Below, piece after piece: positions 2,832 to 60,343 of a stretch of DNA of 60,343 bases (positions within the stretch are counted from its first letter, which is position 1; the number at the start of each line of letters is the position of its first letter). Position numbers and translations under genes: made by a program. A model generated the notes under the pieces. It was not told the DNA's origin, did not search any database, and worked only from the letters and a program-made list of their open reading frames with translations. Source of the stretch: a virus (lineage: Duplodnaviria > Caudoviricetes); the IMG/VR virus record IMGVR_UViG_3300044898_000090, positions 1 through 60,343 of that record; one strand, given 5' to 3'.

Positions 2832-3028
2832 GCGTACACCTTGCCGATCGCCTCGAAGGCCTCCTCGATCTCGTCACCCAGCGACGTCTTGCTCTTCACG
2901 AACTCCAGCAGCGCCAGGTCCGCGTTCCGGTGGTCGACGTCGCTGCCGCAGTCACCCCGCTCGATCTGACGCAGCCGCGACAGCAGACGCGGGCCCGTAT
3001 TGATCTCTTCGCGGTTCCAGTCGCTCAT
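2828..3028 (-). CDS. Hypothetical protein
   Basis: 66 aa, coupled. Confidence 0.65.
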   Translation of the reverse strand: MSDWNREEINTGPRLLSRLRQIERGDCGSDVDHRNADLALLEFVKSKTSLGDEIEEAFEAIGKVYA

Positions 3029-3321: not shown

Positions 3322-3617
3322 CAGGACACGGGCCTATGACGCGGCGGCCGAGGCGGCTCAACGGGTCCCGGAGCCGGCGGAGGCGATGGGCCGTCGTTCT
3401 CCCTGGGGCATACCGTCAGACCGAGCGTAGAGACAGCAGAGCGAGCGAAGCGCCGCGAGATATTCTCGGCCGCATCGTCGCCGCCGAGCGTTCGCAGGCC
3501 AGCCGGGGACATCAGCCACTTGCACTCGTCATCCATCGCCCGGGCCACTTTCTCGAACTCGGCGGGAGAAACGGTGCTTGATCGCGACGCCATGTGGATC
3601 TTCGGCTGGTCGCTCAC
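3321..3617 (-). CDS. Hypothetical protein
   Basis: GTG coupled to the DUF1643 stop; Pro-rich tail. Confidence 0.5.
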   Translation of the reverse strand: MSDQPKIHMASRSSTVSPAEFEKVARAMDDECKWLMSPAGLRTLGGDDAAENISRRFARSAVSTLGLTVCPRENDGPSPPPAPGPVEPPRPPRHRPVS

Positions 3618-4126
3618 GCTGGGCTCCACGGCTCAAGCTCCGTGTCGGCACGCAGGTAGAGCGGGTGTCGTGGCTGGCCACTGTTGGTGACGCCGAGGCA
3701 CTGCAGCGTCTTTGGCCAGACGAGGCCTGGCATCGTGTTCGGCCGCTGCGTGTAGGGCTTTACTTTGGTCCCCCACGTACCCCAGGCAGCGACGATCACA
3801 CCCGCTGCAGCCGCCCAATTCAAGAGGACCGTGTCGTTATCGGGCCCAATCGGGTCAGCGGCGGTAAGCAGCCCGCCGGGGTCCGTCGAGCGGAGCGCGT
3901 ACATGTTCGTCATCACCAGGCCGCCATAGCCCCACTCGCGGGCGAAGCGGATGCAGCGCCGCACCGTCTGGTCGTCGACGGTCTCGTCGGCTGTCGACGG
4001 GTTCAGACCGATGAACATCGCCAGCGGCGTGCTCTCATCCCAGATTCGAGTCAGCGAATAGCGCCAAGTCCGACAGGGTGAGAACACCGCCGCGCTCCGC
4101 GTGTCCAGTTGGAGCTGGCTGCTCAC
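3614..4126 (-). CDS. DUF1643 family protein
   Basis: AVFSPCRTWRYSLTRIW..FIGLNPSTAD..D.TVRRC..AAWG..PRHPLY. Confidence 0.9.
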   Translation of the reverse strand: MSSQLQLDTRSAAVFSPCRTWRYSLTRIWDESTPLAMFIGLNPSTADETVDDQTVRRCIRFAREWGYGGLVMTNMYALRSTDPGGLLTAADPIGPDNDTVLLNWAAAAGVIVAAWGTWGTKVKPYTQRPNTMPGLVWPKTLQCLGVTNSGQPRHPLYLRADTELEPWSPA

Positions 4127-4460
4127 GCCGCGAGCTCCCGTGCCAGCCGGCGATCTTCGACGGCAGCGATGAGCGCCACCTTCTGACGCGGCGACAGCCC
4201 GTCAACGCGCTTGTTGGGGTTCACCCCGACACGGTTCAGCAGCTTGCCGACCTTCACCGCGCCCCAGCTGGGCTGTTCCACCATGATCTCCCACACCCGG
4301 GCGCTCGCGCACGCCGGGTCCGCGAGGCCCTCCATGAGCGACTTGACGCCGGCGCGCATTTCTCGCTTGACCTGCGCCTTGCCGCTCCGGATCCGGTTGG
4401 CCTTCCGAAGGGCGCTCATCCGCTGGTCGAGCGACCGGTCGGGCGATGTACCTGTCCGGT

Positions 4461-4464
<4 letters not shown>
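4123..4464 (-). CDS. mihF: Actinobacterial integration host factor (mIHF/MihF)-like H2TH protein
   Basis: RSLDQRMSALRKANRIR..AQVKREM..G..PSWGAVKVGKLL..GLSPRQ matches the mIHF pattern. Confidence 0.75.
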
Positions 4465-5405
<941 letters not shown>

Positions 5406-5431
5406 GACGTTCTCCTTCTGGTTGGTATTGA

Positions 5432-6532
5432 TCACGCTGCGAGCCCTTGCGCGCAGCGGCATTCGACGATCCGCACTGGCCTGCCGGCGACCTCCTCGAG
5501 CAGACGGCCAAAGCGGTCCTGCGTCCAGCGGCCCTGCTGCGGCGGACAGCCGAGCACGAGCCCGTCGGCGCTCGACTGGTGAAGATGCAACGGCCGGAGC
5601 CAGATCGTGGCGCCCTCGTCGCCGCCGGTGCGCTCGACGAGCTGGGCTGCGATCGGCGCCCACTCGGCGGCGAGCTCCGTGGCCAGCGGCTGGGCGACGA
5701 GGTCAGCCAGGTCGCTCTGCGGCGCGACGGTCTGACGGCGGAACGGGATCGGCGTCGTGTTCTCACGCTGGACGGCGCCGACGCTCTGCGCCTTGAGCCA
5801 CAGTTCGGTGAACCGCTTGCGGAGCTTGCCCGGGGACAGGACGTTGCGGCGCTCGAAGTCGTCGGTCTGACACCACTCGATGACGGCCGCGACTTCCTCC
5901 GCGCTGCGGCCGTCCCGGTCGACGAGGAGGCGGAGCGGGTCGAGCCACGTCCGGCTCTCGGGGGATAGGCTCGCCTTCGGGTCGTTCGCCCTGATCGCGT
6001 CCGCCAGCTGGTTGCTCAGATCGAGGAGATCCTGACGAGACTGGAGCGACGCAGTCGGTTCAGTCTCTTTCTTCGTTTTCTTCTCCTTCTTCTCCCCTTC
6101 TACAAGGGGTGCGTGCCCAGGGTCGGTACCTCCTACGTGCGCCCCGTCGGTAGGGGGTACGTGCCCCGCAATCCCACCAGGTACGTGCTCCGCGCACGCA
6201 CCCTCCTCCGGCGGGTCCGTCAACGTCCACGTGTTCGGCTGCCCGGCCTGCTTGCCGCTCTCGATCCTCACCAGGCCCAGCCGCTCCAGCTCCGGCGCAT
6301 AACGTTCGAACGCCTTGATCTCCACCATCCCCCGCCGGGCGATCTCCTCACGCGGCGTCGCGAACGACTCGCTGCGGGCGTCGTTCGCGCACTCCACCAG
6401 CGCCACATAGATCGAGAGCGCCGTCGGACCCCGCCGTTTGTCGAACCTGCCACGGATCGTCTCGATCGCAGCCTTCGTGACCATCACAAACGGCAGCCGT
6501 CGCTTGTCGCGAACCGTCACCGAGCCGCTCAT
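5432..6532 (-). CDS. Replication initiator (N-terminal wHTH, C-terminal DnaA_N-like domain)
   Basis: ALSIYVALV..IARRG HTH; VIEWCQTDDF..NVLSPGKLRKRF motif; C-terminal W..L....IWLRPL..LVLGCP..RW..RF. Confidence 0.8.
   Translation of the reverse strand: MSGSVTVRDKRRLPFVMVTKAAIETIRGRFDKRRGPTALSIYVALVECANDARSESFATPREEIARRGMVEIKAFERYAPELERLGLVRIESGKQAGQPNTWTLTDPPEEGACAEHVPGGIAGHVPPTDGAHVGGTDPGHAPLVEGEKKEKKTKKETEPTASLQSRQDLLDLSNQLADAIRANDPKASLSPESRTWLDPLRLLVDRDGRSAEEVAAVIEWCQTDDFERRNVLSPGKLRKRFTELWLKAQSVGAVQRENTTPIPFRRQTVAPQSDLADLVAQPLATELAAEWAPIAAQLVERTGGDEGATIWLRPLHLHQSSADGLVLGCPPQQGRWTQDRFGRLLEEVAGRPVRIVECRCAQGLAA
6064..6190. repeat. Putative replication origin: four T(A/G)CGTGC cores at 24-bp spacing plus a pyrimidine tract
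   Basis: Cores at 6110, 6134, 6158, 6182 inside rep; T/C-rich run 6064-6100. Confidence 0.6.
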
Positions 6533-6786
6533 GCGCCGTCACCATGAGCGCGCAGTGCCTCGGCGAGATCCCGGACCGCCCGGCCGCGCTTCTCGTTGAT
6601 GTGCGCGCTCCACCAGTCGTACACGAACCGCAGCCGGCCAAGGACGGGGATCCTGCCGATGCCGCAGCGGAACTCCTCGACGGCGTCGTCCAAGTTCTCA
6701 GCGAGACGCGCCCCACGCTCGAGATGCAAATCCGCCAGCTGCCGCTCCAGCAGCACAGCCTCGTCGGTCGATAGCCCCGACGTCAC
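6529..6786 (-). CDS. Hypothetical protein
   Basis: 85 aa, coupled. Confidence 0.6.
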   Translation of the reverse strand: MTSGLSTDEAVLLERQLADLHLERGARLAENLDDAVEEFRCGIGRIPVLGRLRFVYDWWSAHINEKRGRAVRDLAEALRAHGDGA

Positions 6787-7157
6787 GCGGCCCGCCTAAC
6801 CGGCCCGTAGTGCGAACAAAGGTCAAACAAGCGCGGCTGGTCGAAGCCCACAGGGACGCCAGGAGACTCTTCCGGCGCCCCGACCGCCGGCCTCCCATCC
6901 ACTGACGCCCCTGTCGACCCCGACAGCACAGGCTCCTCATGACCAAGCTCATACCGGCCACCAAGCTCACCAATCACATACCGGTGAGCGCGCAGCCGGC
7001 GGATCACATCCTCAGGCCACCGCGTCCCGGCCATGCTCGCCACTGTCTCGCGCGGCACACCCTCACCACAAGAGTCACGATCCTCACGCAGCGCCGCAAG
7101 GACATCGAGCTCGCGCAGGGTCAACACGATCGCGACGCCAGGGTCCCTAACCGGCAT
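6783..7157 (-). CDS. Hypothetical wHTH-like protein
   Basis: LTLRELDVL..ETVASMAG..VIRRLR..YVI. Confidence 0.5.
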   Translation of the reverse strand: MPVRDPGVAIVLTLRELDVLAALREDRDSCGEGVPRETVASMAGTRWPEDVIRRLRAHRYVIGELGGRYELGHEEPVLSGSTGASVDGRPAVGAPEESPGVPVGFDQPRLFDLCSHYGPVRRAA

Positions 7158-7437
7158 CGGCCTGCTCCAAGCACTCGTCGATTTGCAGCTCCGCGTGCGC
7201 ATCATCGACGTATGCGGCGTTGGCGTCGCGCTCGAGGATCGCTTCCGCGGCGTTGTAGAGGTAGCAGCGCGAGTCGGACTCGTCCCACTCGTCCACGCCG
7301 GTCTCCTCGCGCTGACGATCAAGCTCGGCGCGCGCAGCACGCGCCAGCGCCTGCAGCCGCCGCTCGGCGCGCTCGCGCCGCTCGACTTCTATACGCAGCG
7401 TGAGCAGCGCGCTGTCGCTCCCACCGGGATGCATCAT
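7147..7437 (-). CDS. Hypothetical protein
   Basis: 96 aa, coupled. Confidence 0.6.
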   Translation of the reverse strand: MMHPGGSDSALLTLRIEVERRERAERRLQALARAARAELDRQREETGVDEWDESDSRCYLYNAAEAILERDANAAYVDDAHAELQIDECLEQADAG

Positions 7438-7685
7438 TGGACGACCTCGGCATCCACCTCAGGCGGCTCGGTGAACACGAGGGCCAGCGGGATGCGCACG
7501 CGCAGCTCGGCGACCTGGCCCCTGTATTCGGTCGCACGGTCGTAGACCTCGGCCCGCGTCTCGGCGATGAAGGTGGCGTCGGAGCACTCCAAGTCGACGG
7601 TTTCCTGAAGCCACAGGTGGCCCTCATCCGAGCGCACGAAGAACAGCAGCAGCTCGCGACTGTCGCTTTGCCCTGTTGGTGTCAT
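7434..7685 (-). CDS. Hypothetical protein
   Basis: GGAGGAGG RBS before ATG 7685. Confidence 0.6.
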   Translation of the reverse strand: MTPTGQSDSRELLLFFVRSDEGHLWLQETVDLECSDATFIAETRAEVYDRATEYRGQVAELRVRIPLALVFTEPPEVDAEVVQ

Positions 7686-7852
7686 CGCGCTGTCCTCCTC
7701 CAGTGCGCTTCGACTTCCGCCGCCTTCACCCATAGCCGGCTGTTCGAGCCGATCCACTGGACGTACAGCCGGCCACGCTGCTTCTCGATCACCACGGCGT
7801 GGCTCTCGGCGACACGAACCATGTCGCCCGGCCTGACTCCGGCAAGCGTCAT
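7682..7852 (-). CDS. Small SH3/KOW-like protein (56 aa, below the ORF-track cutoff)
   Basis: MTLAGVRPGDMVRV..LYVQW..LWV; ATGA-coupled on both sides. Confidence 0.55.
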   Translation of the reverse strand: MTLAGVRPGDMVRVAESHAVVIEKQRGRLYVQWIGSNSRLWVKAAEVEAHWRRTAR

Positions 7853-8049
7853 CGTTGTCCAGCCTCACGTTTCGGGAATCTCACGCCGCTGCGAGCTCGC
7901 ACGGCCGGACCGAACGTGGCGGCGTGCGCCGGGGCCATTTCGCCCTCACGGTCGCGTTGCGCCAGCGCCCGGTCGCGCACGGAGTCCACGTCTTCACACG
8001 CCTCGAAGAACGCCTGGTCGTCGCGCCAGTCGCGGATCGCCGGTCTCAC
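7849..8049 (-). CDS. Hypothetical protein
   Basis: 66 aa, coupled. Confidence 0.5.
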   Translation of the reverse strand: MRPAIRDWRDDQAFFEACEDVDSVRDRALAQRDREGEMAPAHAATFGPAVRARSGVRFPKREAGQR

Positions 8050-8204
8050 AGGGCCTTCCCGTCCTGCTGGCGGAGCTGACGTTGACCGCGGCGCGTGACG
8101 GTGAGGAGCGCCGAGCGCCTGCTGCGCTTGCGGTCACCGTCGAGGGGGCGCATCTTGCGGACGCGACGCCGCGCGGCCTGTCCCTTCATGCGCGGCCCGG
8201 TCAT
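8046..8204 (-). CDS. Small basic protein
   Basis: Arg-rich, coupled. Confidence 0.45.
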   Translation of the reverse strand: MTGPRMKGQAARRRVRKMRPLDGDRKRSRRSALLTVTRRGQRQLRQQDGKAL

Positions 8205-36234: not shown

Positions 36235-37624
36235 TGGTGTCTCTCCTTGGGTACAGCCCGATCCTTGGGTAGAGCCCTTTGCGGGGTCGCAGCCCGATGG
36301 CGATGCGGTGTCCGTGGCGGGGGGCGACGAGACCGGCGGCCTCGGCTGGGGTGACCGTCCCGGCTTTCTGCCGTGGGTTGACGAGGCCGGGGAGCGTGAT
36401 GATCCGTGACGGGGTGCCGATCGTGACGGTGCAGACCGCGCTGGAGGTGCTCGACGCGGGGTTCAGGGGAACCTGGGTGGCGGCGGTGAGCCCCATCGTC
36501 GCGGAGCTCGTGCTCGCTGCTGGCGAGAGCGGCACCTGTGTCGCGGCCGTGAGGGACATCGATGCCGCGCTCGTCGACACGGCGGGGTTCAACGGCACGA
36601 CAGTGGGCGTGCTGCCGACCGTGACGGTTGCCTGCGCCGAGCTGGTGCTGGACGCTGGCTGCAACGGGATCTGGGTCGCGGCGCTGACCGCCATTGACGC
36701 GGAGCTCGTGCTGGATGCCGGGGACAGGGGGATCTGTGTAGCGGCGGTGACTGCGGCGGACGCGGAGCTCGCGCTGACCGCGGGCGATAGCGGGACCTGC
36801 GTGGCGGCGGTCACGGCCGCTGTGGCGGCGCTCGCGCTCGCGGCGGCCTGCAGGGGTATCTGCGTGGCGGCGCTCACAGCCGCGCTGGCGGCCGAGGAGG
36901 ACGCTGCGGGGCTCAGGGGGACCTGTGTTGCTGCCGTGACCGCCATTGAGGCTGAGGACGACGAGGACGCGGGGTTCAAAGGGATCGCTACGCCGGTCGC
37001 GGCTGGTTTGATCGCGACGACGAGTATCCCGGCGCCTTTAGACGTTTCCCAGTTCGCGGTGAACGTCACCGCCGCGAGGGTCGTCCCGGGGATGTAGGAG
37101 CCCGCCATGCAGCGCGTCGAGGCGGTTTCGACGTTCGTCATCGGCCCGGTGCCGGTCCACGCGCTAATCGTGCCCGTCGCCGCCGCCCCGTCACTCACCG
37201 CGGCGAGGACAATGTCGCCGGCGTCGGTGGTCGTGATCGCGTTCGACGTGATCGTTTTCACAGACACGGCGTTGTCTTTGTTGTTGATGACGTCGACCGT
37301 TTCGGACGCGCCTGACAGCTCGAAGTAGGAGATGCCCTGTATCGCGCCGCCCGCCCCCACCGTCGGGTTTAGTTCCGTCTCACCACCGACGGCGATCTTC
37401 ATCGCAACCCACAGCGAGTTAGCGGACGCCGCGTTTAGCGCCTTCGTGGCGTTCACCGTCCAGCCCGTCGAGCCGCTTTTCTGGTCTTTGCCCGTCGGGG
37501 CCGACACGGATGCGGTCTGTGAGATGAACGCGACCAGCAGGTTCCCAGCCGTCGCGCTCGTGATGGTGAGCGTCGAAGCTACCGCCGACCCGGTCTGCTT
37601 CTTGTTGACGACCGCAGCGGCCAT
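36221..37624 (-). CDS. Virion fiber-like protein with nine ~21-aa repeats
   Basis: Q(V/I)PL.PA.S.S.AS...TAAT repeats; GLYP repeats at the C-terminus. Confidence 0.75.
   Translation of the reverse strand: MAAAVVNKKQTGSAVASTLTITSATAGNLLVAFISQTASVSAPTGKDQKSGSTGWTVNATKALNAASANSLWVAMKIAVGGETELNPTVGAGGAIQGISYFELSGASETVDVINNKDNAVSVKTITSNAITTTDAGDIVLAAVSDGAAATGTISAWTGTGPMTNVETASTRCMAGSYIPGTTLAAVTFTANWETSKGAGILVVAIKPAATGVAIPLNPASSSSSASMAVTAATQVPLSPAASSSAASAAVSAATQIPLQAAASASAATAAVTAATQVPLSPAVSASSASAAVTAATQIPLSPASSTSSASMAVSAATQIPLQPASSTSSAQATVTVGSTPTVVPLNPAVSTSAASMSLTAATQVPLSPAASTSSATMGLTAATQVPLNPASSTSSAVCTVTIGTPSRIITLPGLVNPRQKAGTVTPAEAAGLVAPRHGHRIAIGLRPRKGLYPRIGLYPRRDTIEPD
36415..36990. repeat. Degenerate ~63-bp coding tandem repeats (9 units)
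   Basis: Seen in the translation. Confidence 0.8.
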
Positions 37625-49288: not shown

Positions 49289-49555
49289 TCACGCCGCCCG
49301 AAGCTCAATGCGTTTGCCGCACTGGAAGCAGTCACCGTCGTCGCCGTCGATCGGGACGTCGCACCGGCAGGGCGAGGCCTTCTTCGCGATGACCCCTGAC
49401 GATCGGCGCGCGTGTGGCGAGCAGTTGCCGCAGAGGCAGCCGTTGGCGAAGCCGTGGCATATGGGCGTTGGGCTGTCGACTACTCGCAGCTTGCCGTCGT
49501 GGGCCACGATGCAGCCGCGTCTGCCGTATGCCGGCAGAAGGATCTTCACGGTCAT
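49289..49555 (-). CDS. Cys-rich zinc-binding protein
   Basis: CLCGNC..CRC..CFQCG. Confidence 0.55.
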   Translation of the reverse strand: MTVKILLPAYGRRGCIVAHDGKLRVVDSPTPICHGFANGCLCGNCSPHARRSSGVIAKKASPCRCDVPIDGDDGDCFQCGKRIELRAA

Positions 49556-50106
49556 ATGTCGCCCCGTTCCCGCCGCTGTCGCGTATAGGCGCGCATTGCA
49601 CCTCGGCATTTGTCACAGCGACATAGCCAGGTGGTGTAGCCGTTGAGCGTCCCGTGCTTGATCGGGGCTCGGTGCAACGCTGCATGGTGCTTGCGACACA
49701 ACCAGCGCACGTCTAACGGCTTCGCGTAGTCGTCATGATGCGCTTCGATGTTCGCCTTAGTGCCGCAGACCTCACAAGGCTGCCGAACCAGTGTGCCTGC
49801 ACGTAGGGCGTCTCTGACCTGCATCCGTGCACCGTGCTTCACCGGATCGAACGTCGGGATCGGTCCCTGAGCGAGCCGCTGCGCGCGAATCCCGTTGCGA
49901 ATCTCGTCGCGTAGTCCTCGCGTCCGGATCTGCTTGTGAAGCGACGTTTCAGGCACTCCGAGCTGGCGTGCATAGCCGCGAATGTGGCCGGCGGCTATAC
50001 AGCCCCCAACGATCTCCGCGTCGCTCGGATACGTCGCGCCAGATGCCCGAGTGGACAACTCGCTCGACCGTATCGGTAGGTTGCACCCCACGTCGGACGG
50101 AATCAT
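49552..50106 (-). CDS. HNH-like zinc protein with HTH and HGT..CRC finger
   Basis: PCEVCG..EAHHDDY.KPLDV.WLC..HH; HGT..GY..CRCDKC. Confidence 0.7.
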   Translation of the reverse strand: MIPSDVGCNLPIRSSELSTRASGATYPSDAEIVGGCIAAGHIRGYARQLGVPETSLHKQIRTRGLRDEIRNGIRAQRLAQGPIPTFDPVKHGARMQVRDALRAGTLVRQPCEVCGTKANIEAHHDDYAKPLDVRWLCRKHHAALHRAPIKHGTLNGYTTWLCRCDKCRGAMRAYTRQRRERGDI

Positions 50107-50558
50107 GCTGCGTCCCGGTATTCGGCTCGGATCTTGCGGACGTACTGGCCGCTCACGCCGTACTTGTCGGCGATCTTGGACGACGATAGATCGCTTTCAG
50201 CGACCCACCGCTTCCACTGGGGTGTGCCGTACTCGGGTTCGCCTGTGAGCGCTGGCTGACGCTTCCAGGCGGTGAGTGCGTCCTTTGCCTCCCCAAGGAT
50301 CAGCGTGCGACTCTCGTCGCTTCGTGCGCGGGCGAGCCGCCGGCGGAAGTGATCAACGGACTTCTGTGGATGGTGCCGCTCGTGGTTGTCGGGCAGGTCG
50401 TCGCGGCGGTCGATGCCACCCGGCGGACGGCGTCCGCCGATGTCCTCACCGTGATCGCCGCCGGATGACTCCAGGTTGACCGCGCTCACGTGGCTGACCA
50501 GTTCGAGTTCGGCCAGGACCTGCCGCAGCTGCTGCTCGACGCTCACCAGACGGGTCAT
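50103..50558 (-). CDS. Putative late transcription regulator (C-terminal HTH)
   Basis: SSSKIADKYGVSGQYVRKIR; near the end of the early operon. Confidence 0.55.
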   Translation of the reverse strand: MTRLVSVEQQLRQVLAELELVSHVSAVNLESSGGDHGEDIGGRRPPGGIDRRDDLPDNHERHHPQKSVDHFRRRLARARSDESRTLILGEAKDALTAWKRQPALTGEPEYGTPQWKRWVAESDLSSSKIADKYGVSGQYVRKIRAEYRDAA

Positions 50559-50746
50559 CGCACTCTCCTCAGTCCATTGCGGCTTACGACGGACCGAGAC
50601 CCGTCCTCAAACTCGATAAGGGCGCTGTTCATGGATCCACGCGCGAGCACCCTGCACCGCTGGCCTTTGCGGTCGAGCTGCGTCATCCACGGCTTGTCGG
50701 GGTGCGGTCCCCAGTGCCAGATGTAGGGGAAAGCCTCACCGGCCAT
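50555..50746 (-). CDS. Small SH3-like protein
   Basis: RKGQRCRVLARG.MNSALIEFEDG. Confidence 0.65.
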   Translation of the reverse strand: MAGEAFPYIWHWGPHPDKPWMTQLDRKGQRCRVLARGSMNSALIEFEDGSRSVVSRNGLRRVR

Positions 50747-50867
50747 CGCTCACCCCCAAGACAATCCCAGCGACGATCGTCCCGACGATCAGGACGCACA
50801 CGGCGATAAAGACCCAGCCCTCGACCGGACCCATGCCATCCATCGGACCACGCCGCCTCTCACCCAT
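50736..50867 (-). CDS. Small TM peptide (43 aa)
   Basis: ATG inside a junction repeat; hydrophobic core. Confidence 0.45.
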   Translation of the reverse strand: MGERRRGPMDGMGPVEGWVFIAVCVLIVGTIVAGIVLGVSDGR

Positions 50868-51057
50868 CGCTGTCCTCCCCGAACACATGGAGGTCGTCCA
50901 TTTCCATTACGCGCTTCTCGTCGATGAGGTAGACGTATCCGAGCGGAGCAAGGCGGCTCTCGCGAATCTCATCTACCTCATCGGGAATCGTCAGGGCCGC
51001 TTCCGCCCGCCGACGACTCGCCGGGTGAACTAGCGCGATCAGGCGATCCTCACCCAT
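50860..51057 (-). CDS. Hypothetical micro-gene
   Basis: Bounded by junction repeats. Confidence 0.55.
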   Translation of the reverse strand: MGEDRLIALVHPASRRRAEAALTIPDEVDEIRESRLAPLGYVYLIDEKRVMEMDDLHVFGEDSDG

Positions 51058-51388
51058 CGCTGTTCTCCCCGAACCCCTCGGGCAGAAGTCCTTGGATCGC
51101 GTGCTTCCAGTCGCCAACCTCAGAAGCAGCAACGAGGGAACGAAGATGCGCGTAGACACTTTGTAGCTCACCCTCGGGGTCGGGCGCCGGCTCAGCGTCA
51201 AAGAGCGCTACGCGCTCGGCGAGGCCATCCATGCCCTTCTCTCGCAGCCGCGCAATCAGGCGATCCCGCGAACCGTCAGGATCACGCGCACGTTCCACTT
51301 CCCAGCGCGCCACCATGTCCATGCTGCCCGTGAGTACGCAGCCGCAGACCGGGCACGGTGCCTTCATCTTCTTGAGTCGCTCGCTCAT
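51050..51388 (-). CDS. Hypothetical CxxC protein
   Basis: CPVCG; bounded by junction repeats. Confidence 0.6.
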   Translation of the reverse strand: MSERLKKMKAPCPVCGCVLTGSMDMVARWEVERARDPDGSRDRLIARLREKGMDGLAERVALFDAEPAPDPEGELQSVYAHLRSLVAASEVGDWKHAIQGLLPEGFGENSDG

Positions 51389-51618
51389 CGCTCGCTGTGC
51401 TCCCTCGGGGGAACGGACGGGTCAAAGAAGCTCGTTGAGTGGTCGATCTGCCCGGACAGGCCACAAACGGTGCAACGGCCCCGGTAACGCGCTGTCACCT
51501 CGCCGGTCTCAGCGCCGTAGAACTCGTAGTCCTCGCGGAAGGTGCGCTCGGCCTCGCTGGCGTAGATGCCCGCACGCTCGCGGCACCGGGGGCAGATCAC
51601 CCAATTGTCGGCGCTCAT
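51385..51618 (-). CDS. Zinc-ribbon protein
   Basis: MSADNW.ICPRC..FREDYE..CTVCG. Confidence 0.7.
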   Translation of the reverse strand: MSADNWVICPRCRERAGIYASEAERTFREDYEFYGAETGEVTARYRGRCTVCGLSGQIDHSTSFFDPSVPPREHSER

Positions 51619-51986
51619 GCGTCCTCCCTCGGGGAGACGACGCAGCGGATGGCCGACAGGACCTCCGCCCGTTCGTCGGCCACATCATCCGGTCGAGTGC
51701 TGGCAGCGAGAATGAAGTCCTCTGCCGCCGTCAGCGCCTGCCGTGCGGCGTCAAGGGCGAACGCCACACCCGCGTCGAAACCGTGGCAATGAGCATCGCG
51801 CTTGTCGGGCGGCGATTCGGGGTGCCAGTCCGTCCACGCCTCATACTCGGCATCCTGCGCGCTCGTGTCAATCATGGCTCGGCTCCCTTGAATCCAACCT
51901 TGACAAAACGCTGCTCGCTCACTCGCCTGCTCTGGTTCCGGCAACGGATAAGCCCTTCTCATCGCCTTGCTCATTCGCTTACTCAT
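51615..51986 (-). CDS. Hypothetical protein
   Basis: Bounded by junction repeats. Confidence 0.6.
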   Translation of the reverse strand: MSKRMSKAMRRAYPLPEPEQASERAAFCQGWIQGSRAMIDTSAQDAEYEAWTDWHPESPPDKRDAHCHGFDAGVAFALDAARQALTAAEDFILAASTRPDDVADERAEVLSAIRCVVSPREDA

Positions 51987-52227
51987 CGCTGTCCTCCCTC
52001 GGGGAGACGACAACATCTTCAAGATCGCGAACGTAGGCGATACCGCGAGGCGGCGAGCCACCGTGGGGGTTACGCGGCCCACTCTCGTACTGGATCGTCA
52101 CGGTGTGCCTGCTCCGTCCGGTTCCTACTCCCACAATGCGCCCAAGACCAGCGAAGGGATGGCGCACGCGCTGCCCGATGTAGGGAATAACGTCACCTTC
52201 GATGTAGTGGTCATCGCGACCCGTCAC
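51979..52227 (-). CDS. Small SH3-like protein
   Basis: IGQRVRHPFAGLGRIVGV. Confidence 0.6.
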   Translation of the reverse strand: MTGRDDHYIEGDVIPYIGQRVRHPFAGLGRIVGVGTGRSRHTVTIQYESGPRNPHGGSPPRGIAYVRDLEDVVVSPREDSDE

Positions 52228-52451
52228 GCGTCCTCCCTCGGGGAGAGAGCGGCACGGGCCTTCTCTCCGTTGTCGGATTGGAAGGCTGGCTCCACCGTCG
52301 GCATCTCATCCCACGTCCGGCCGTCCAGCTCACGGCCGCCAGCCTTCGGGGTCGCGCCGCCGACCTGCTTGAAGAAGAAGCCGGTCCGGCCTGCTAGGAG
52401 CGTGTCGTGGCCGATGATCGGCTGGTAGTTCCCGCAGATGCGACAGATCAT
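52224..52451 (-). pseudogene. C-terminal fragment of a DUF5131 (phage Gp37/Gp68) protein
   Basis: FFFKQVGG..GGRELDGRTWDEMP in a 75-aa ORF. Confidence 0.65.
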
Positions 52452-53407
52452 GAGGCCGGCTTTCGGTTAGCCTGGCGGAGGCCATAGTCACGGAGCGCAA
52501 AGAGATTTTCCCACGCGACCTTATGAGCCGGATGACTGGGGTTAGAGCCGACCAGGGCTTGGAGCTGCTGCCCTTGCTTGAAGTTCAGCGAGAGGAACTC
52601 GTCCCACTTGCCACCTGTCTGTTTGGGTTTGTCCCAGCGGCGGCGTCCCATCGTCATCTTGCTCGGGGCCGAGGGGAGCGTGAGCGGATCGATCCCAAGA
52701 CACACGGCGAGCTTCTTGGCGCTCCACCAATTTAGGCGCGATTTGTGGGCAAGGTCGTTCACTTGAATGCCGGCCTTCACAGCTAACGCCCTGACCGAAG
52801 GCCGCGTGTGGCTAGGCATGCAGATCGCCGGCTCGCCCTTCACACGCCCTTCCCTGCCATCCTTTGAGATGGGCGTGCGCTGTCCACACCCGCACTGGCA
52901 GAAGCCCTGTGGCGCCTTGGCATCCAGAAATCGCTTGATCTCTCGCTGAAATGCGGAGAGCGGCACGTACGCGAGCCCTTGGCGGGCGACTTCGCGGGCC
53001 AGTGCCTTGTCTGTGATGTCGTCGGCGCATTCAAGTGTGTCGAGGATCTCGTGCAGTTTGCCTCTGTCCGCGAGTATCGCCGCCCTACGAAAACGAGTGG
53101 CCCGAGCTGGACGCGGCTCGCCCCCCTCGACCCACGCCGTGCCGGCACGCAGTTCGATCTCCCCCATCCCGGCCTCGCATTCGATCCTTAACCGCGCGAG
53201 TTCATTCGCCGTCTCCGTGAGTTTCCGATGCTGGGCCTCTTTCTGCGCCCACCAGAGTCTCAACCGGAGATCGTCGAGTCCCTGTGTGTCACCGGTCTCA
53301 ATGAGCGCGGGTAGCCTTGCGCGCTGAGCCTCCACAAGGTGGGCGCCGGCGCCGGGTGCCACTATCTCTGTGCTGGCGCCGCTCAACGGCTTCTCAGGGT
53401 GCGTCAT
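52448..53407 (-). CDS. Hypothetical protein with CxCGCG motif
   Basis: GFCQCGCGQRTP; AAGGAG RBS. Confidence 0.65.
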   Translation of the reverse strand: MTHPEKPLSGASTEIVAPGAGAHLVEAQRARLPALIETGDTQGLDDLRLRLWWAQKEAQHRKLTETANELARLRIECEAGMGEIELRAGTAWVEGGEPRPARATRFRRAAILADRGKLHEILDTLECADDITDKALAREVARQGLAYVPLSAFQREIKRFLDAKAPQGFCQCGCGQRTPISKDGREGRVKGEPAICMPSHTRPSVRALAVKAGIQVNDLAHKSRLNWWSAKKLAVCLGIDPLTLPSAPSKMTMGRRRWDKPKQTGGKWDEFLSLNFKQGQQLQALVGSNPSHPAHKVAWENLFALRDYGLRQANRKPAS

Positions 53408-53700
53408 GCGTCTCCTTTGCGTTGTGGTGGTCTACGGCGGCCAATCGGCAACAGGTCCACCTTGCTCTCGGCCGGTGGTTGCCAGGCGGCGGGAGCGATC
53501 ACGGGGTCGAACCGCAGTCGCCTCCCGATACGGATGGCCCCTAGCTCGGCGGCGTGCCGATAGACCGTCTTCACATCTACGCCCAATGTGTCGGCGAGCT
53601 GTGCCGCCGTTAGCAACTCGCCTGCTCGCGACTCGTGCTTCCGCAGGTGATGCGCGATGCGCTCCGCGAGAAGCTCAAGCTGATCCGGGTCGAGTCTCAT
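53404..53700 (-). CDS. HTH_17/excisionase-like DNA-binding protein
   Basis: LLTAAQLADTLGVDVKTVYRHA..IGRRLRF. Confidence 0.75.
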   Translation of the reverse strand: MRLDPDQLELLAERIAHHLRKHESRAGELLTAAQLADTLGVDVKTVYRHAAELGAIRIGRRLRFDPVIAPAAWQPPAESKVDLLPIGRRRPPQRKGDA

Positions 53701-54044
53701 GCCGCGTGCTCCCGTTGCTCGAGGATGTCGCGCTGCCTGTCTGACAGCGCCGTCTTCAATGCTCTGGTGGCGGCGAGCTCGTCGAGCCCGGTCTCGGCCA
53801 TCAACGCCTTGCGTGCCCGGTAGAACGACACCTGCAGTCCAGACGGCTTCACCGTTCGTGCTTTGTTCGCCCTACGCGCGTCGTACAGGCTCTTGCCGGG
53901 GTTAGAGCGAGTCCAGCGCACGGCGTGCGCCCTCGACACCCAGATCGCGTCCCTGCGCATACCGTCCAACGACTGGCCACAGCCACACGCGCACACCCTC
54001 GGAGACTGCACCCGACCATCCAAGTGAAGCTGCGCCGGCGTCAT
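53697..54044 (-). CDS. Hypothetical CxCGCG protein
   Basis: CACGCG. Confidence 0.6.
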   Translation of the reverse strand: MTPAQLHLDGRVQSPRVCACGCGQSLDGMRRDAIWVSRAHAVRWTRSNPGKSLYDARRANKARTVKPSGLQVSFYRARKALMAETGLDELAATRALKTALSDRQRDILEQREHAA

Positions 54045-54241
54045 GCTCTACCCCGCTCACCGAGGGACACCACGAGCTCGGCCGACAGCAGACCGCCGCG
54101 TTCCATCTCAGCCAGCACCGTCAGCAGACGGTCGCTCTGCGCCAGCGGGTGCCCACGCTTCCCGAGCTGGTAGCGCAGCTCGCCTTCTGTCACTCGAACC
54201 GAGGACCGCAGACAGTCGAGGATCACCTGGTCGCCGATCAC
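54041..54241 (-). CDS. Hypothetical small protein
   Basis: 66 aa, coupled. Confidence 0.55.
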   Translation of the reverse strand: MIGDQVILDCLRSSVRVTEGELRYQLGKRGHPLAQSDRLLTVLAEMERGGLLSAELVVSLGERGRA

Positions 54242-54588
54242 GCCAGCAGCCGATCAAGCCTCGGGTCATGCTGTGGCCGCAGCTCAGGGACACGCCTCAG
54301 CACCGTCTCGATCTCCGGCCAGTCAGACGGCCGCCACAGCCACACTTCCGGGGTCGCCAAGCCGAGAGCGTCAAGCCACTCGCGCTGCGCCTTCGACTCG
54401 CGGCCTTTCTCTGTCTTCAGCTCAGCGAACAGCAAGCGGAGCCCACGCACCATGCACAGGTCCGGGAAGCCCGCGACGCTGTGCCGGCTGTCGAACGTGT
54501 GGTAGACCCGCCAGCCCTGCAGCAGCGCGTACTCAACGACTGCGGCCTGGAACTGCTTCTCCGTCTGCTGTAGCGCGGCGGTCGTCAC
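54238..54588 (-). CDS. VRR-NUC domain nuclease
   Basis: EKQFQ..GFPDL..FAELK..Q..W..WRPSD. Confidence 0.88.
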   Translation of the reverse strand: MTTAALQQTEKQFQAAVVEYALLQGWRVYHTFDSRHSVAGFPDLCMVRGLRLLFAELKTEKGRESKAQREWLDALGLATPEVWLWRPSDWPEIETVLRRVPELRPQHDPRLDRLLA

Positions 54589-56417
54589 GCGCTCGCCTCA
54601 TCCAGGATCGGCAGCAGGCGCTCGACGAGCGCCGTCATCACCGGGGGAGTCACGGCGTTTCCGTACTGCGCCATGCGCTCGCGCTTGTTGCCGAGCACCA
54701 CGTACTCGTTGCCGTCGACGTGGTCGTCCATCGCCATCGCCGCGGCGATCTCGTGCAAGGCGAACATCCGGAAGCCGCACGCGTCGATGTCCTCGTCGGT
54801 GTAGATCACCGCTGCGCGGTCGCGGGTCGTGAGCGTCATCGACGGCTCCTGGTCGGCGAGCACCGGGGCGCCTGTGCGGTCGTAGGGGACGAGGACCGCC
54901 TGCTTCGCGCGTTTCGTCAGCGCCGTAACGGGCTCCTGGTCGGCGTCGCGCGCCAGGTTGCCGTCCTGGAAGGGCACGAGGATCGACTGGTGGCCCGCAG
55001 TCGCGAGCGTGCGGATCGGCTCGTGGTCGGGCGTGCACATCTGGCCGTTCTGGCCATCGTTGTTGCGCATGACCACAACGCCGTGGTGTTTGCCAGCCGC
55101 CCTCACCGTCCCGATAGGTGAGCTGTCCGGGTCGCGGAGCTCGCCGTGGCGCTGCATCTCGACGACGCCGAGCGTCTCCCCCGTGCAGACGGTTTGCACC
55201 GGGTGCTGGTCGGCCGAGCGCGGGACGCCATGCATCCGATTGCCCATGACGAGCGCGCTGCGCGTCGTGGTGGTCTGCGTCGGCAACGGGTGCATCTGCG
55301 CATCGCGGCCAGCGACATCGCCCATCGGCGGCACGACGAGTGCCTGCTCGGGCGTGCCGTGGATGGTGGCGAGTGGCGTCGTGCTGGCGTCCCTCGCTCG
55401 GTTGCCGGGCTTCCGCTCGAAGGTGTTGCCGGCGACCGGGGTCACCATCGCCATGTCGTGCCGCTGCGTGAGCGTGACGATCGGGAGCGTCAGCGGCTTG
55501 GGCGAGCCGCCCTGCAGCAGCCGGATCGCGAACGGCTCCGACGCCAAGCGCTCGAGCCCGCGGCGGATGCGCTCCCGCGTGTTCTTCGCCAGCGGCTTGT
55601 CCCGGTCGCCGATCAGCGGCGCCGGCAGGCTACGGTCGATGATCGAGATGGCGGGCAGCACCCCCGGCAGGACTGTCCCGCCGCACGTGGGGCAGCCGTA
55701 GAAGTACTGGACGCCATAGCGGCCCCACGGCGAGCGGTCCATCCGCTTCCACGTCTGGCGCCCGTCGACCAAGGTCGAGCACTTCGGGCACCACGAGCGC
55801 GGCTCGAAGCGGAGATCCGGCCGGCGCAGGCCCTTCAGCCAGTAGACGACGTACATGCGGTCCCGCGACTGCGGCGTCGGCGGGCAGAACATGGAGTTGA
55901 GGTAGACGATCTCGCTCTCGTAGCCGATCGCGCAGACCGCCTGGCGCCACGCCGCGAACAGGCCCCCGTCATCCCCAGCGCCCCACTTGAACGCGTCGAC
56001 GACGTTCTCCACAACGATCGCCTTGTAGGGCTTGCCCTTCAGCCACTTCTGCTCCGTAAAGCGGACGACGTCCCACATCGTGGCGCGGGAGCGTTCCTGC
56101 TCCTCGCTCCCCGCCGGGCCGTCCTCGAACAGCGACGCCGCCTGCGGTTTGATCCGCCGGGCGCCCTTCGCCAGGCTGTGGTTCGTGCACTCAGGAGAGG
56201 CGAGCAGGATGTCCGAGTCCGGGTAGCGGCGGATCTGCGCCGTCGTCAACGACGCCACGTCCTCGCAGTCATGGTCGGCGTGCTGAAAGTTCGTCGCGTG
56301 CGTCTCGATCGCGCGCTGCCAGTGGTTGAGCGCCAGACGCAGCTCGCCGCCCGCGATCTCGAAGCCGAGGCTCGAGCCGCCCGCGCCGCAGAAGAGATCC
56401 GTCGCGGTGACGCTCAT
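54585..56417 (-). CDS. C5 cytosine DNA methyltransferase
   Basis: DLFCGAGG, SPEC, ENV, QSRDR, YGNAV. Confidence 0.93.
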   Translation of the reverse strand: MSVTATDLFCGAGGSSLGFEIAGGELRLALNHWQRAIETHATNFQHADHDCEDVASLTTAQIRRYPDSDILLASPECTNHSLAKGARRIKPQAASLFEDGPAGSEEQERSRATMWDVVRFTEQKWLKGKPYKAIVVENVVDAFKWGAGDDGGLFAAWRQAVCAIGYESEIVYLNSMFCPPTPQSRDRMYVVYWLKGLRRPDLRFEPRSWCPKCSTLVDGRQTWKRMDRSPWGRYGVQYFYGCPTCGGTVLPGVLPAISIIDRSLPAPLIGDRDKPLAKNTRERIRRGLERLASEPFAIRLLQGGSPKPLTLPIVTLTQRHDMAMVTPVAGNTFERKPGNRARDASTTPLATIHGTPEQALVVPPMGDVAGRDAQMHPLPTQTTTTRSALVMGNRMHGVPRSADQHPVQTVCTGETLGVVEMQRHGELRDPDSSPIGTVRAAGKHHGVVVMRNNDGQNGQMCTPDHEPIRTLATAGHQSILVPFQDGNLARDADQEPVTALTKRAKQAVLVPYDRTGAPVLADQEPSMTLTTRDRAAVIYTDEDIDACGFRMFALHEIAAAMAMDDHVDGNEYVVLGNKRERMAQYGNAVTPPVMTALVERLLPILDEASA

Positions 56418-56983
56418 GCGGCCTCCCATAGGGAGGCCTGGTACTCAAGCGACCGCGAGCGCACGCCGAACGTCATGCCGAGACCCGACTGGGCGAGCGC
56501 CTCCGCGCAGCCCGGTCCGAACGCCACGAGCGCGGAGGGTGCGCCGGAGTTGTACGGCGCGGGCCGCTTGGCGGCGGTCACGAACGTCAGGCGACCGGCG
56601 ATGAAGCAGACCGCGTGCGATGCGATGACCGTCTGCTGCCACCACTCGGTCTCCGTGCGCGCGAACACCAGGGCGACGCCATCGCCATGCGCCGCCAGCT
56701 TGCGCATCCATCGCTCCGTGTTCGGCCCGTACGGCGGATTCAGCCACACCCGGCCGTCCCACGGCTTGCCGAGTCCATCGTCCTCGATCGAGAAGAACCG
56801 TCGGGCTGGAACCCAGTCAAGGCCGCCAGCAGGCGAGCATGGGTCGAGGTCGAATGTTAGCCCGAGCGCCTCGAAGATACCCGGCGGCGTGTACCACTCG
56901 ACCGAGTCGCCGTCATAGCCCCGGGAGTGGCCGCCCATGCCGCGCCCACGCTGGCCTCGCACCGATACGGATGTCCGGCTCAC
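56414..56983 (-). CDS. Phage N6-adenine DNA methyltransferase
   Basis: EWYTP, LDPC, DGL, WLNPPY, ART, GRL.F. Confidence 0.88.
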   Translation of the reverse strand: MSRTSVSVRGQRGRGMGGHSRGYDGDSVEWYTPPGIFEALGLTFDLDPCSPAGGLDWVPARRFFSIEDDGLGKPWDGRVWLNPPYGPNTERWMRKLAAHGDGVALVFARTETEWWQQTVIASHAVCFIAGRLTFVTAAKRPAPYNSGAPSALVAFGPGCAEALAQSGLGMTFGVRSRSLEYQASLWEAA

Positions 56984-59260: not shown

Positions 59261-59610
59261 AGCGCGCCCCCGGCGATCTGGTAGATCCGCAACGGCTTCC
59301 CCTCGAGCTTCGAGGGGGCCTGGTGGCGGACGCGGCTGGTGACGAGGACCAGCCCGTCGATGCGATCGCTGAGCGCGTACCGGCGGAGCTGGCGGAGCAC
59401 GGAGGTGGCAGCGCCGGCGACCTTGACCTCGATGCCGACGCGGCCGACGAGCAGGTCGATGCGACTGCGGTTGTCGAGACGGACCTCGCGCTCCACGTCG
59501 AACCCGGCGGCGGCGAGCGCCACGGCGAGCCCCTGCTGAAGGTCCTCCTCGCTGGCGTAGTTGAACCGGCGGGCGGCCAGCACGTTCAGGATCGGCTCGC
59601 AGACGCTCAC
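59257..59610 (-). CDS. PD-(D/E)XK nuclease
   Basis: E..LQ..REV..RIDLL..GIEVK..QLRRY. Confidence 0.8.
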   Translation of the reverse strand: MSVCEPILNVLAARRFNYASEEDLQQGLAVALAAAGFDVEREVRLDNRSRIDLLVGRVGIEVKVAGAATSVLRQLRRYALSDRIDGLVLVTSRVRHQAPSKLEGKPLRIYQIAGGAL

Positions 59611-60131
59611 GCCGCACGCCCCAGGTACTCGTCGATCGCGCGCACGTCCCTCGCGTGCTTCTCGTGCGCCCCGCTCCCCGGGTTGTTATCCCACGCGCCC
59701 GTCTTGTGCTCGCGGATCAGCTCCAAGGGCGTGCATTTCCAGCCGTCGATCGTCTCGGCGTGCCCCCGCGCCTTGTCGGCGTCCACCCACGGGTCGCGCG
59801 GCGTCCACTGGTAGAAGGCGTGCGCCCGGAAGCCACCGACGTTCCGCTCGAGGAACGGAGGGTCGGCGATGTGGGGCAGCCGCACGCGCCAGTTCAGGCT
59901 GCCCGAGAGTCCCAGCCATAGCTCCGGTTCGACGAAGACGTCGACATCGGAGATGCTCTCGCGTAGGCCATGCAGAACCAACACGAGCGAGCCGAACAGC
60001 GCCCACTCGGCGCCCGGGAAGCCATCCGGGCCCTGATTGACGAAGCGGTCGGCGCCCTCGTTCAGCTCGTTCCGCAGCGGGAACAGCCGCCACAGCATGT
60101 CGCCCGGAATCGTCTTGCGACGCCGGCTCAC
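59607..60131 (-). CDS. Pol-beta-superfamily nucleotidyltransferase
   Basis: LFGS..L.LHGL...SDVDVFV; C-terminal K..K...D. Confidence 0.75.
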   Translation of the reverse strand: MSRRRKTIPGDMLWRLFPLRNELNEGADRFVNQGPDGFPGAEWALFGSLVLVLHGLRESISDVDVFVEPELWLGLSGSLNWRVRLPHIADPPFLERNVGGFRAHAFYQWTPRDPWVDADKARGHAETIDGWKCTPLELIREHKTGAWDNNPGSGAHEKHARDVRAIDEYLGRAA

Positions 60132-60343
60132 GCCGCACGCTCCCTGATGGCCTTCGCGTACTCAAGCTGCAGCTCGCAGGCGCGCGAGCAGGGGACCTCG
60201 AACAGGTCGCCGCCGATGACCCAACCCGCGTCCTTCGCACAGTTGGGACAGCCTTTGCTTTCTGTGTAGGGACCACATCCGTCAGAGTCGAAGCCGACCC
60301 CCTCGAAGATCACTAGCTCCTCGCCGTTGAGAGCGCGGGTCAC
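60128..60343 (-). CDS. Small Cys-containing protein
   Basis: CPNC..CSRAC. Confidence 0.55.
   Translation of the reverse strand: MTRALNGEELVIFEGVGFDSDGCGPYTESKGCPNCAKDAGWVIGGDLFEVPCSRACELQLEYAKAIRERAA

Follow-up and report, generated by a model that had tools for sequence, protein, structure and literature searches.

Junction Repeats in a Block of Small Prophage Genes

The DNA analysed here (IMG/VR record IMGVR_UViG_3300044898_000090, hereafter the window) is a complete soil provirus record of 60,343 bp and about 67% GC, in which the minus strand carries nearly all genes and the tRNA count is 0. Between its methylase/VRR-NUC genes and its HNH-terminase genes lies an array of small non-structural genes of different families. 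We observed that consecutive junctions of this array carry near-identical short sequences, here called the linker. Each copy lies within the last 4–11 codons of the upstream small gene and includes an in-frame Shine–Dalgarno sequence (SD; GGGAGGA or GGGGAGRA), and every copy is on the minus strand. The junctions, in the order of transcription, are as follows:

J1 (type A), 52224-52259, minus strand: reads GCCCGTGCCGCTCTCTCCCCGAGGGAGGACGCGTGA; tail ARAALSPREDA of the 75-amino-acid (aa) gene, SD GGGAGGA, GTG start overlapping the TGA stop (−4)
J2 (type A), 51979-52011, minus strand: reads GTCGTCTCCCCGAGGGAGGACAGCGATGAGTAA; tail VVSPREDSDE; ATG–stop overlap of 8 nt
J3 (type A), 51615-51641, minus strand: reads GTCGTCTCCCCGAGGGAGGACGCATGA; tail VVSPREDA; ATGA overlap
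J4 (degenerate type A), 51385-51413, minus strand: reads TTCCCCCGAGGGAGCACAGCGAGCGATGA; tail PPREHSER; one stem pair broken and SD weakened to GGGAGC
J5 (type B), 51049-51074, minus strand: reads GTTCGGGGAGAACAGCGATGGGTGAG; tail FGENSDG; ATG–stop overlap of 8 nt
J6 (type B), 50859-50884, minus strand: reads GTTCGGGGAGGACAGCGATGGGTGAG; tail FGEDSDG
J7 (degenerate), 50736-50757, minus strand: reads GGGGGTGAGCGATGGCCGGTGA; tail GVSDGR; shares AGCGATGGCCGGT with junction c of the locus L015 described below

The genes that meet at these junctions are the following:

g75, 52224-52451, minus strand: C-terminal remnant of DUF5131 plus a 24-residue tail ending in the J1 linker; ATG without an SD (J0)
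g82, 51979-52227, minus strand: small gene
g123, 51615-51986, minus strand: central QDAEY..W.P.S.PDKRD.H.HGFDAG domain; weak DUF7168 match
g77, 51385-51618, minus strand: zinc-ribbon-like, MSADNW...CPRC...TFREDYEFYG...C..CG; widespread phage family
g112, 51050-51388, minus strand: small protein with CPVCG
g65, 50860-51057, minus strand: small 65-aa gene between the J5/J6 direct repeats
g43, 50736-50867, minus strand: 43-aa hydrophobic, membrane-like peptide
g63, 50555-50746, minus strand: ends the variable block of small genes; downstream junction, J8, outside the linker family

Type A copies (J1–J4) have the form ..TCTCCCCGAGGGAGGAC.. and type B copies (J5 and J6) the form TTCGGGGAGRACAGCGATGGGTGAG, with GGAGGACAGCGATG common to both types. 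The stop and start overlap by 4 nt at J1, J3 and J4, by 8 nt at J2, J5 and J6 and by 11 nt at J7, and the SD lies 5–11 nt upstream. All linker copies combine an overlap of the form ATGA/GTGA or ATGnnnTRA with an SD and a spacer, and the distance from core to start is 2–8 nt. J5 and J6 are direct repeats, identical at 24/25 nt (96%, repeat family D12), that bound exactly the 65-aa gene. The exact strings that J2 has in common with other junctions measure 21 nt (J3), 17 nt (J1) and 24 nt (L015a, a junction of another phage, below). The repeat finder linked the copies through three families, namely J1/J3 (D15), J2/J4 (D20) and J5/J6/J2 (D12). Short local repeats also occur near J4 (AGCGAGCGATGAGCGAGCGA) and after J2 (ATGAGTAAGCGAATGAGCAAGGCGATGAG). 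Counted together, there are four type A, two type B and two degenerate or related copies, all of them inside upstream open reading frames (ORFs) and all but one within 1.5 kb.

An initial annotation of this DNA had listed six junction strings and the six tails SPREDA, SPREDSDE, SPREDA, PPREHSER, FGENSDG and FGEDSDG. All are present on the minus strand at the places given for them, except that the base count of the first string was off: it reads TCTCCCCGAGGG, with four C instead of three. The family is also larger than the six copies listed, as it includes the degenerate J7 and a fifth SD hairpin at 56414-56435.

Could such similarity arise by chance? The exact 10-mer CCCGAGGGAG occurs four times in the 60 kb, compared with a mean of 0.36 in 100 shuffles, none of which reached four. 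The four copies are at consecutive minus-strand stop/start junctions within 850 bp, 8–14 nt before the start codon. Similarly, CCCGAGGGAGSAC was found 0 times in the forward and four times in the reverse orientation, and its reversed-pattern control in neither (0/0). Sites like GGAGGACAGCGATG (≤1 mismatch) and CCCGAGGGAG sites are restricted to 50.7–52.3 kb of the window. A chance origin of the repeat is excluded.

Unrelated Proteins with Linker-Encoded Tails

When the 12 proteins of the region were compared all against all by blastp, only tails of 7–10 residues matched, at E 0.03 or worse, which bears out the description of consecutive unrelated micro-genes joined by near-identical sequence. 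Paralogy or tandem duplication of the array genes was rejected on the basis of the repeat finder and this protein comparison. Furthermore, the homologues of two array proteins show where the proper protein ends. In an alignment of g77 with 13 homologues, the conserved part stops near Phe64 and SVPPREHSER is found in 0/13; in the g112 family, all eight members end their conserved part at ...QGLLPEGF, after which differing short acidic tails follow. Because the tails are missing or different in the homologues of g77 and g112, and because the proteins are otherwise unrelated, the repeat belongs to the junction and not to the proteins.

Long Shared Strings at Neighbouring Junctions

Two controls show how much sequence gene junctions share elsewhere. 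For one, 42 viral loci with a g77 homologue were fetched, of which 26 were measurable (15 lacked the start motif used by the script and one was truncated). The longest string common to a gene's two junctions was ≤7 nt in 23 of these 26 loci and 9, 10 and 13 nt in the remaining three, compared with 21 (g123), 17 (g82), 15 (g65) and 11 nt (g77) in the window. The other control used a crude gene call of our own, a dynamic-programming chain of ORFs with coding-type GC content at third codon positions (GC3), which gave 97 genes and 96 junctions, most of them with 4-nt ATGA/GTGA overlaps. The 4560 pairs of these 96 prophage junctions share a mean string of 5.5 nt, and the nine pairs that share ≥12 nt include five within the array.

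The long shared strings are also concentrated between neighbours. Adjacent junction pairs sharing ≥12 nt numbered 4/95, compared with 0/5000 order permutations (p = 2e-4), and outside the array 3/89 adjacent pairs share ≥10 nt (p = 0.028). The strongest matches are between the two junctions that bound one gene, and identity reaches 11–20 nt upstream of the SD, where the sequence has no ribosome-binding role. This concentration in neighbouring junctions fits local copying and not a uniform selection for a good ribosome-binding site (RBS).

An Identical Island in a Second Phage

When 2.9 million viral contigs were scanned for the 15-mer TCCCCGAGGGAGGAC, 15 loci were returned. Only L015 among them was informative; its exact match extends over 27 nt of J1 and over 24 nt of J2. 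Bases 52256-52230 of J1 are 100% identical to positions 4393-4419 of L015. A search with GCCCGTGCCGCTCTC gave at least 120 matches, and none of those listed continued into a linker. The L015 locus is part of G001, a complete 70.8-kb phage genome with terminal repeats that contains no relative of the window terminase. In the 29 kb of G001 that were examined, there was no homologue of the eight array genes, and the array-flanking 319-aa ORF (g319) gave one weak match. The genes on either side of the 27-nt island are different in the window and in G001, and the probability of such an island arising by chance, given the 15 scan matches, is ~1e-5 or less.

G001 carries one exact linker copy plus diverged copies. 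The sequence GCCCGTGCCGCTCT (tail ..ARAAL..) occurs in g75 and in three L015 genes, written in identical rare T-ending codons (GCC CGT GCC GCT CTC); by itself, this 15-mer is common and uninformative. Furthermore, L015a combines the left flank of J1 (CGTGCCGCTC) with the right flank of J2 (AGCGATG), and J1, J2, J3 and L015a jointly present all four combinations of left and right flanks around the core, as expected if crossovers fall in the core. The initial annotation had viewed each unit as a portable "ORF + RBS/start linker" cassette, integron-like without attC. The tails, the homologues, the G001 island and the four flank combinations agree with the first half of this view, in that the junction is separable from the genes; an integron in the strict sense did not hold up, as the one integrase present, a tyrosine recombinase of phage type, lies 50 kb from the array and there is no attC-sized structure.

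A Predicted Hairpin over the Shine–Dalgarno Sequence

The type A linker contains a 13-nt core, CUCCC-CGA-GGGAG, which is predicted to fold at −5.7 kcal/mol, in line with the mini-hairpin proposed initially. In 70-nt contexts, the predicted probability that the SD is unpaired is 0.004 at J1, 0.010 at J4 and 0.101 at both J2 and J3, and in that order these four junctions rank 1, 2, 5 and 6 of the 46 SD-bearing junctions for lowest accessibility. The outer stems of the linker copies lie in different registers. An apparent covariation in the outer stem (J2 GUUGUC/GACAGC versus J3 UGCGUC/GACGCA) failed a flank-shuffle test and was dropped as evidence. A fifth SD-masking hairpin junction was found outside the array:

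56414-56435, minus strand: between the 189-aa and 614-aa methyltransferase genes; CTCCC-TAT-GGGAGGCCGCATGA; repeat family D15, 78%

Here, a perfect 8-bp hairpin (GGCCTCCC-TAT-GGGAGGCC) lies over the SD and is followed by CGCATGA, with a predicted SD unpaired probability of 0.0. Compared with type A, its stem and layout are alike and its loop and flanks are different.

No promoter-like sites were found in 49500-54500 in a scan for the E. coli-type sigma-70 consensus, the one promoter type covered. Four terminator-like sites were found (2.5 expected), none at junctions, and a T tract is lacking from the linker hairpin. Rfam gave no meaningful match, the one match (E 0.38) being to an unrelated microRNA model.

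Genes, Relatives, and Variability of the Block

In transcription order, the array is preceded by genes for an SNF2 helicase, two DNA methyltransferases, a VRR-NUC nuclease and a helix-turn-helix (HTH) protein and by g319, and it is followed by a 151-aa ORF (g151), an HNH endonuclease and the large terminase. Such a position is the usual place for small accessory genes of temperate siphophages. The best genome match of the window terminase is a Solirubrobacteraceae metagenome-assembled genome, at 49% identity.

The truncated DUF5131 gene that was initially said to open the array is a real fragment with a weak match (E 1.7e-4; 21.7 bits, below the cut-off of 28.9), which covers the last 37 of 243 profile positions; DUF5131 was not found in the four related records searched. 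g82 matched only itself among 5.8 billion proteins, while the g77 family gave 193 protein matches and 42 viral loci. g112 has seven relatives at 51–73% identity (family n = 8), and a search of viral contigs for it gave none; one Streptomyces match was spurious. Conservation of g123 elsewhere is limited to its central domain.

This g123 domain (QDAEYxAW..W.P.S.PDKRD.H.HGFDAG; residues 37–91, window 51700-51880) is present in 5–12 copies in giant proteins of 600–1800 aa and was also met in fusions with varied partners. One g123 homologue, P0124, likewise ends ..ARAALAAISGGR, and several homologues have REDTERPD-like internal strings that resemble translated junctions. The coding GC3 signature is missing from the first 37 codons of g123 (51876-51986; values 0.54, 0.59 and 0.54), and a gene call made elsewhere begins at Met38. 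On the other hand, domain matches extend back to residues 8–20, and Met1 and Met38 are both candidate starts.

The whole 2.4-kb region, compared with 50,697 GenBank phages, gave one chance-like match of 42 nt, and a protein search with g319 returned no relatives. A terminase search found L021 (86% aa identity) and the distant L020, L022 and L023. L021 is 79–82% identical in nucleotide sequence over the structural genes and keeps homologues of g115 and g151, but 0/10 of the genes between these two were matched, and about nine other small ORFs lie there instead. The block is hyperplastic, and L021 is too diverged for breakpoints to be placed. The array of L021 is wholly different from that of the window. 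In a DNA sequencing run that is probably the source, one assembled contig spans the region and shows no deletion or circle joint; since contigs drop rare variants, this is uninformative on either.

L021 has a 22-nt junction pair of its own (CCAGCGYGAGGAGGACTGATGG), which bounds one 53-aa gene. At 4570-5110 (plus strand), L021 also has three successive small genes with similar N-termini (MTPSHPKSEHTEG, MPPKSGHTPEP and VSEHTPGKGE), whose shared junction sequence runs past the start.

Other Repeats in the Window and in Other Phages

The window contains further repeats. The integrase gene and an ORF that lies 576 bp downstream have similar 3' ends, made by a 33-nt repeat at 215-247 and 791-823 on the minus strand (85% identity, with 17 nt exact). 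The two proteins accordingly share the ending ..LVKDESA, and the product of the intervening gene ends ..GESA, a second local "dialect" of junction. At 59605-59619 and 60126-60140 (minus strand), a 15-nt exact repeat, GCGTGCGGCGTGAGC, with a GTGA overlap is present at both junctions of a 174-aa gene (59.6–60.1 kb). Many other prophage junctions follow a looser GGGAGC..GCGGCGTGAGC pattern, which yields ..AA tails. Two repeats are internal to genes: about 24–35 tandem 9-nt units (GGCGGCTTC/GGCGGCTCC, plus strand) at 4625-4939 inside a 400-aa minus-strand ORF (4461-5663) with a weak tail-fibre PHROG match, and a 63-nt-spaced repeat (D2), present in six diverged copies at 36452-36982, inside a large ORF of the structural region.

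Junction repeats were also seen in other, uncultured phages. On L011, a 41-kb IMG/VR contig of an uncultured 67%-GC phage, GTGAAAAG-N12-14-GGGTAAGGTA-N5-ATG occurs eleven times before consecutive genes (94-7060, plus strand), a start-associated repeat with its own consensus that resembles the start-associated sequences (SAS) and extended start-associated sequences (ESAS) discussed below. L104 has four copies of GGAGGACTGACATG(AGC) as RBS/start junctions of neighbouring small genes (7174-8100, minus strand), L075 has two copies of TAAGGAGGACAGCGATG (391 and 728, plus strand), and L051 has two copies of a 34-nt junction (12469 and 12666, minus strand). Such local repeats at junctions may be widespread among high-GC phages.

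Origin and Possible Function of the Linker

Could a ribosome-binding site also serve as a site of gene exchange? The repeats are probably copies of a translational-coupling linker that spread by recombination at gene junctions and that double as cassette boundaries. The linker supplies an in-frame SD, a spacer of 2–8 nt and a start codon whose overlap with the upstream stop is 4 or 8 nt, and a ribosome ending one gene would be handed on to the next. At the type A junctions (J1–J4), the CUCCC arm is predicted from folding to pair with the SD, and the next gene would then be translated mainly once the upstream ribosome opens the hairpin. Identity beyond the SD would reflect common descent and not convergence, as indicated by the agreement of the copies in rare T-ending codons, in loop and in frame, and by the fact that the closest copies are neighbours bounding a single gene. 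Homologous recombination within the linker could insert, replace or delete single genes while the operon stays coupled, and as a cassette boundary the linker could be shared between unrelated phages. The neighbour bias, the direct repeats around single genes, the four-way flanks and the inter-phage island fit recombination within the linker. What the sequences show directly is the repeat and where it lies, that it can be told apart from the flanking genes, the bias towards neighbouring junctions and the island in G001; from these and from predicted folds we infer the coupling function, the control by the hairpin and recombination as the copying mechanism. The near-identical junctions and the G001 island suggest that the junctions couple translation and serve as swap points for single genes. 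It is possible, although we put this forward only tentatively and consider it doubtful, that the linker is in addition a portable translated recombination module, such that any gene ending in the linker joins in frame any gene starting after it.

Several observations weigh against this interpretation. One inter-phage island was found, and the linker family is so far known from two phages; the other 14 of the 15 viral 15-mer matches are in unrelated contexts without extended similarity, and a search with a 17-mer plus start gave eight genome and nine metagenome loci, of which 0/17 had extended similarity. (One 17-mer match, L026, was rejected as a chromosomal intergenic RBS.) No relative is close enough to show an insertion or deletion bounded by the linker, and a non-exhaustive scan of 20 early proteins recognised no recombinase. 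As for the hairpin, type B is not clearly masked, with predicted SD unpaired probabilities of 0.205 at J5 and 0.745 at J6, and the low accessibility of J1–J4, which are copies of one another, amounts to one observation and not four. Beyond the 5-bp core, the hairpin is no better than with shuffled flanks (per-junction p 0.09–0.84; Fisher 0.31), and whole-junction folding z-scores are modest (−1.2 to −2.7). Moreover, gene conversion among neighbouring junctions would yield the same neighbour bias without cassette movement.

Some of the similarity can come by convergence, which is real for the SD–spacer–start part. At least 117 unrelated viral contigs have the 14-mer GGAGGACAGCGATG, a common SD-plus-start sequence, where a gene begins; in 3 of the 118 matches listed it continues into ATGGGTGA, as in J5/J6. 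If convergence were the whole explanation, the SD, the spacing and the overlapping stop/start would have been selected in a 65–70% GC genome without any copying or exchange, and the loose GGGAGC..GCGGCGTGAGC style of many prophage junctions would be in keeping with this. We consider it unlikely, as identity extends 11–20 nt past the SD, J1 and three L015 genes use identical rare T-ending codons, the loop CGA is identical in five copies even though a different loop serves at the 56414 junction, and neither the neighbour bias (p = 2e-4) nor the 27-nt island (chance ~1e-5 or less) is expected from it. Concerted evolution alone, in which the junctions were alike from the outset and were kept so by gene conversion or slippage with no role in gene gain or loss, would account for the neighbour bias and for the short local repeats near J4 and after J2. 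It leaves the G001 island and the replacement of the whole block between conserved flanks in L021 unexplained, and conversion tracts on 15–27 nt of homology would in any case be recombination at the linker; we regard it as rather unlikely.

The linker might instead be a translational operator, to whose hairpin and SD a protein or RNA, from phage or host, would bind to time expression, as proposed in the reports on the SAS of Cluster K and Cluster EF actinophages (PMC3203893, PMC7302621). The SAS-like position, the single orientation, the restriction to non-structural genes and a conservation beyond that of an ordinary RBS, features that those reports describe for SAS, would agree with this, as would the near-palindromic core and the HTH gene 1 kb upstream. 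The initial annotation had offered the same alternative; the anatomy does fit an SD-masking coupling hairpin, but nothing points to a trans-acting factor, and no candidate binder was identified. The 4+2 linker copies are clustered, whereas the SAS described in those reports number 10–19, are dispersed over the non-structural arm and are mostly intergenic; the SAS consensus is absent here, and the sites are inside coding sequence. G001 has one exact copy plus diverged ones, and, the weak g319 match aside, the window early proteins that were compared have no homologue in 29 kb of it. An operator thus appears distinctly unlikely. It is very unlikely that the repeat encodes a functional C-terminal peptide tag (SPRED.., FGE.SDG), for degradation or docking, for example: all copies use one reading frame, as a tag would, but there is no synonymous variation between them, Arg is always the rare codon AGG, the g77 and g112 homologues lack the tag, and the tails are read off the SD in a frame fixed by the overlapping stop. 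Extremely unlikely, finally, is a site-specific, integron-like cassette system whose recombinase recognises the hairpin. Single genes do lie between direct repeats able to form a hairpin, but there is no integron-type integrase, the repeat is 13–35 nt long, the copies are inside ORFs, and Rfam offers no meaningful match.

How phage genomes become mosaics with joints exactly at gene boundaries is a long-standing question, and one view holds that random illegitimate recombination is followed by selection. In the present case a boundary sequence can be seen: one junction after another uses it, and it recurs among unrelated genes of an unrelated phage. Its existence also has a plain selective rationale, since it provides the ribosome-binding and probable coupling signal. 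If exchange at a coupling linker is confirmed, it would show how small accessory genes are gained and lost without breaking operon expression, and annotators would gain a marker of cassette boundaries and of true start codons in high-GC phages. If the more tentative portable-module proposal were true, unrelated soil phages would trade single promoterless genes as coupled cassettes. Such exchange would be a recombinase-independent functional analogue of the integron and would speak directly for mosaicism by way of a "boundary sequence". If, on the other hand, the linker is merely a stereotyped RBS, it would still offer a clean example of predicted SD masking in a coupled phage operon.

Comparison with Known Systems

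Like integron attC arrays, the linker array consists of promoterless single-gene units parted by a repeated, hairpin-capable site. attC sites are bipartite imperfect inverted repeats of about 55–140 nt. The linker repeat, in contrast, is 13–35 nt long with a single 5-bp stem, and no attC-sized structure is present. A search for an integron-type integrase found none; the only integrase is the tyrosine recombinase at 792-1967 (Pfam Phage_integrase, no NCBIfam match), ~50 kb from the array. With no IntI, no attC architecture, and sites inside ORFs whose orientation and frame constraints point to translation, the linker array is not an integron.

In their anatomy, the junctions match those of translationally coupled genes. 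The coupling models discussed in PMC12548453 involve RNA unfolding or termination–reinitiation and −4 spacing, with f1 genes VII/IX and MS2/fr coat–lysis among the examples, and the linker shares with the junctions described there the −4/−8 overlap, an SD located within the upstream ORF and a predicted RBS structure for the upstream ribosome to open. The coupled cases presented in that source are single gene pairs, whereas the linker is reused at 6–7 consecutive junctions and is shared with another phage.

In their reuse, the linker copies recall the SAS and ESAS of Cluster K mycobacteriophages and Cluster EF Microbacterium phages, described in PMC3203893 and PMC7302621. The linker and the SAS portrayed in these papers are alike over-conserved repeats in the RBS position of unrelated non-structural genes, in phages of Actinobacteria (a putative host group in the case of the window). 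They share one orientation and a place a few bases before mostly ATG starts, and they have an SD core with flanking bases unable to pair with 16S rRNA. The linker differs from the SAS described there in having another sequence, in lying inside the upstream ORF with an overlapping stop/start, and in its 4+2 clustered copies. Its flanking arm is predicted to pair with the SD, whereas hairpins at ESAS were found unsupported by the ESAS authors (PMC3203893, PMC7302621). In our scan of the window for the two 13-bp SAS consensus sequences (≤2 deviations, ~1.6 matches expected for each), GGGATAGGAGCCC (Cluster K) gave one chance-level match at 11934, off the array, and GGGAAAGGACCCC (Cluster EF) gave 0.

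With regard to consequence, the linker is like the promoter-early stem-loop (PeSL) cassettes of T4-type phages. According to the accounts in PMC2839356 and PMC4122927, short repeated regulatory motifs flank small non-essential ORFs in a hyperplastic region there as well, they act as exchange points between otherwise unrelated sequences, and repeats around one ORF could release that ORF. The PeSL elements so described are transcriptional (a sigma-70 promoter plus a terminator) and intergenic, whereas the linker appears to be translational and lies in coding sequence; the likeness is in consequence and not in content. For PeSL cassettes, insertions, deletions and replacements that distinguish close relatives would break within the motif, and mini-circles would form.

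Recombination at short boundary sequences has been discussed as a source of phage mosaicism (PMC3029335), and the linker resembles the boundary sequences of modular theory as set out there, in that recombination at a short conserved sequence at gene boundaries would join unrelated modules. Such recombination would be expected to leave a footprint like the 27-nt island, which two phages share between unrelated genes. In the account given in PMC3029335, the proposals concerned lambdoid phages, boundary sequences are missing at most mosaic joints, and the route is usually undetectable. The linker differs from the classic boundary sequences of that account in that it is probably also a coupling RBS and is translated. 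By analogy, the linker resembles SAS motifs, PeSL cassettes and boundary sequences, and it is best regarded as a likely variant of these known kinds.

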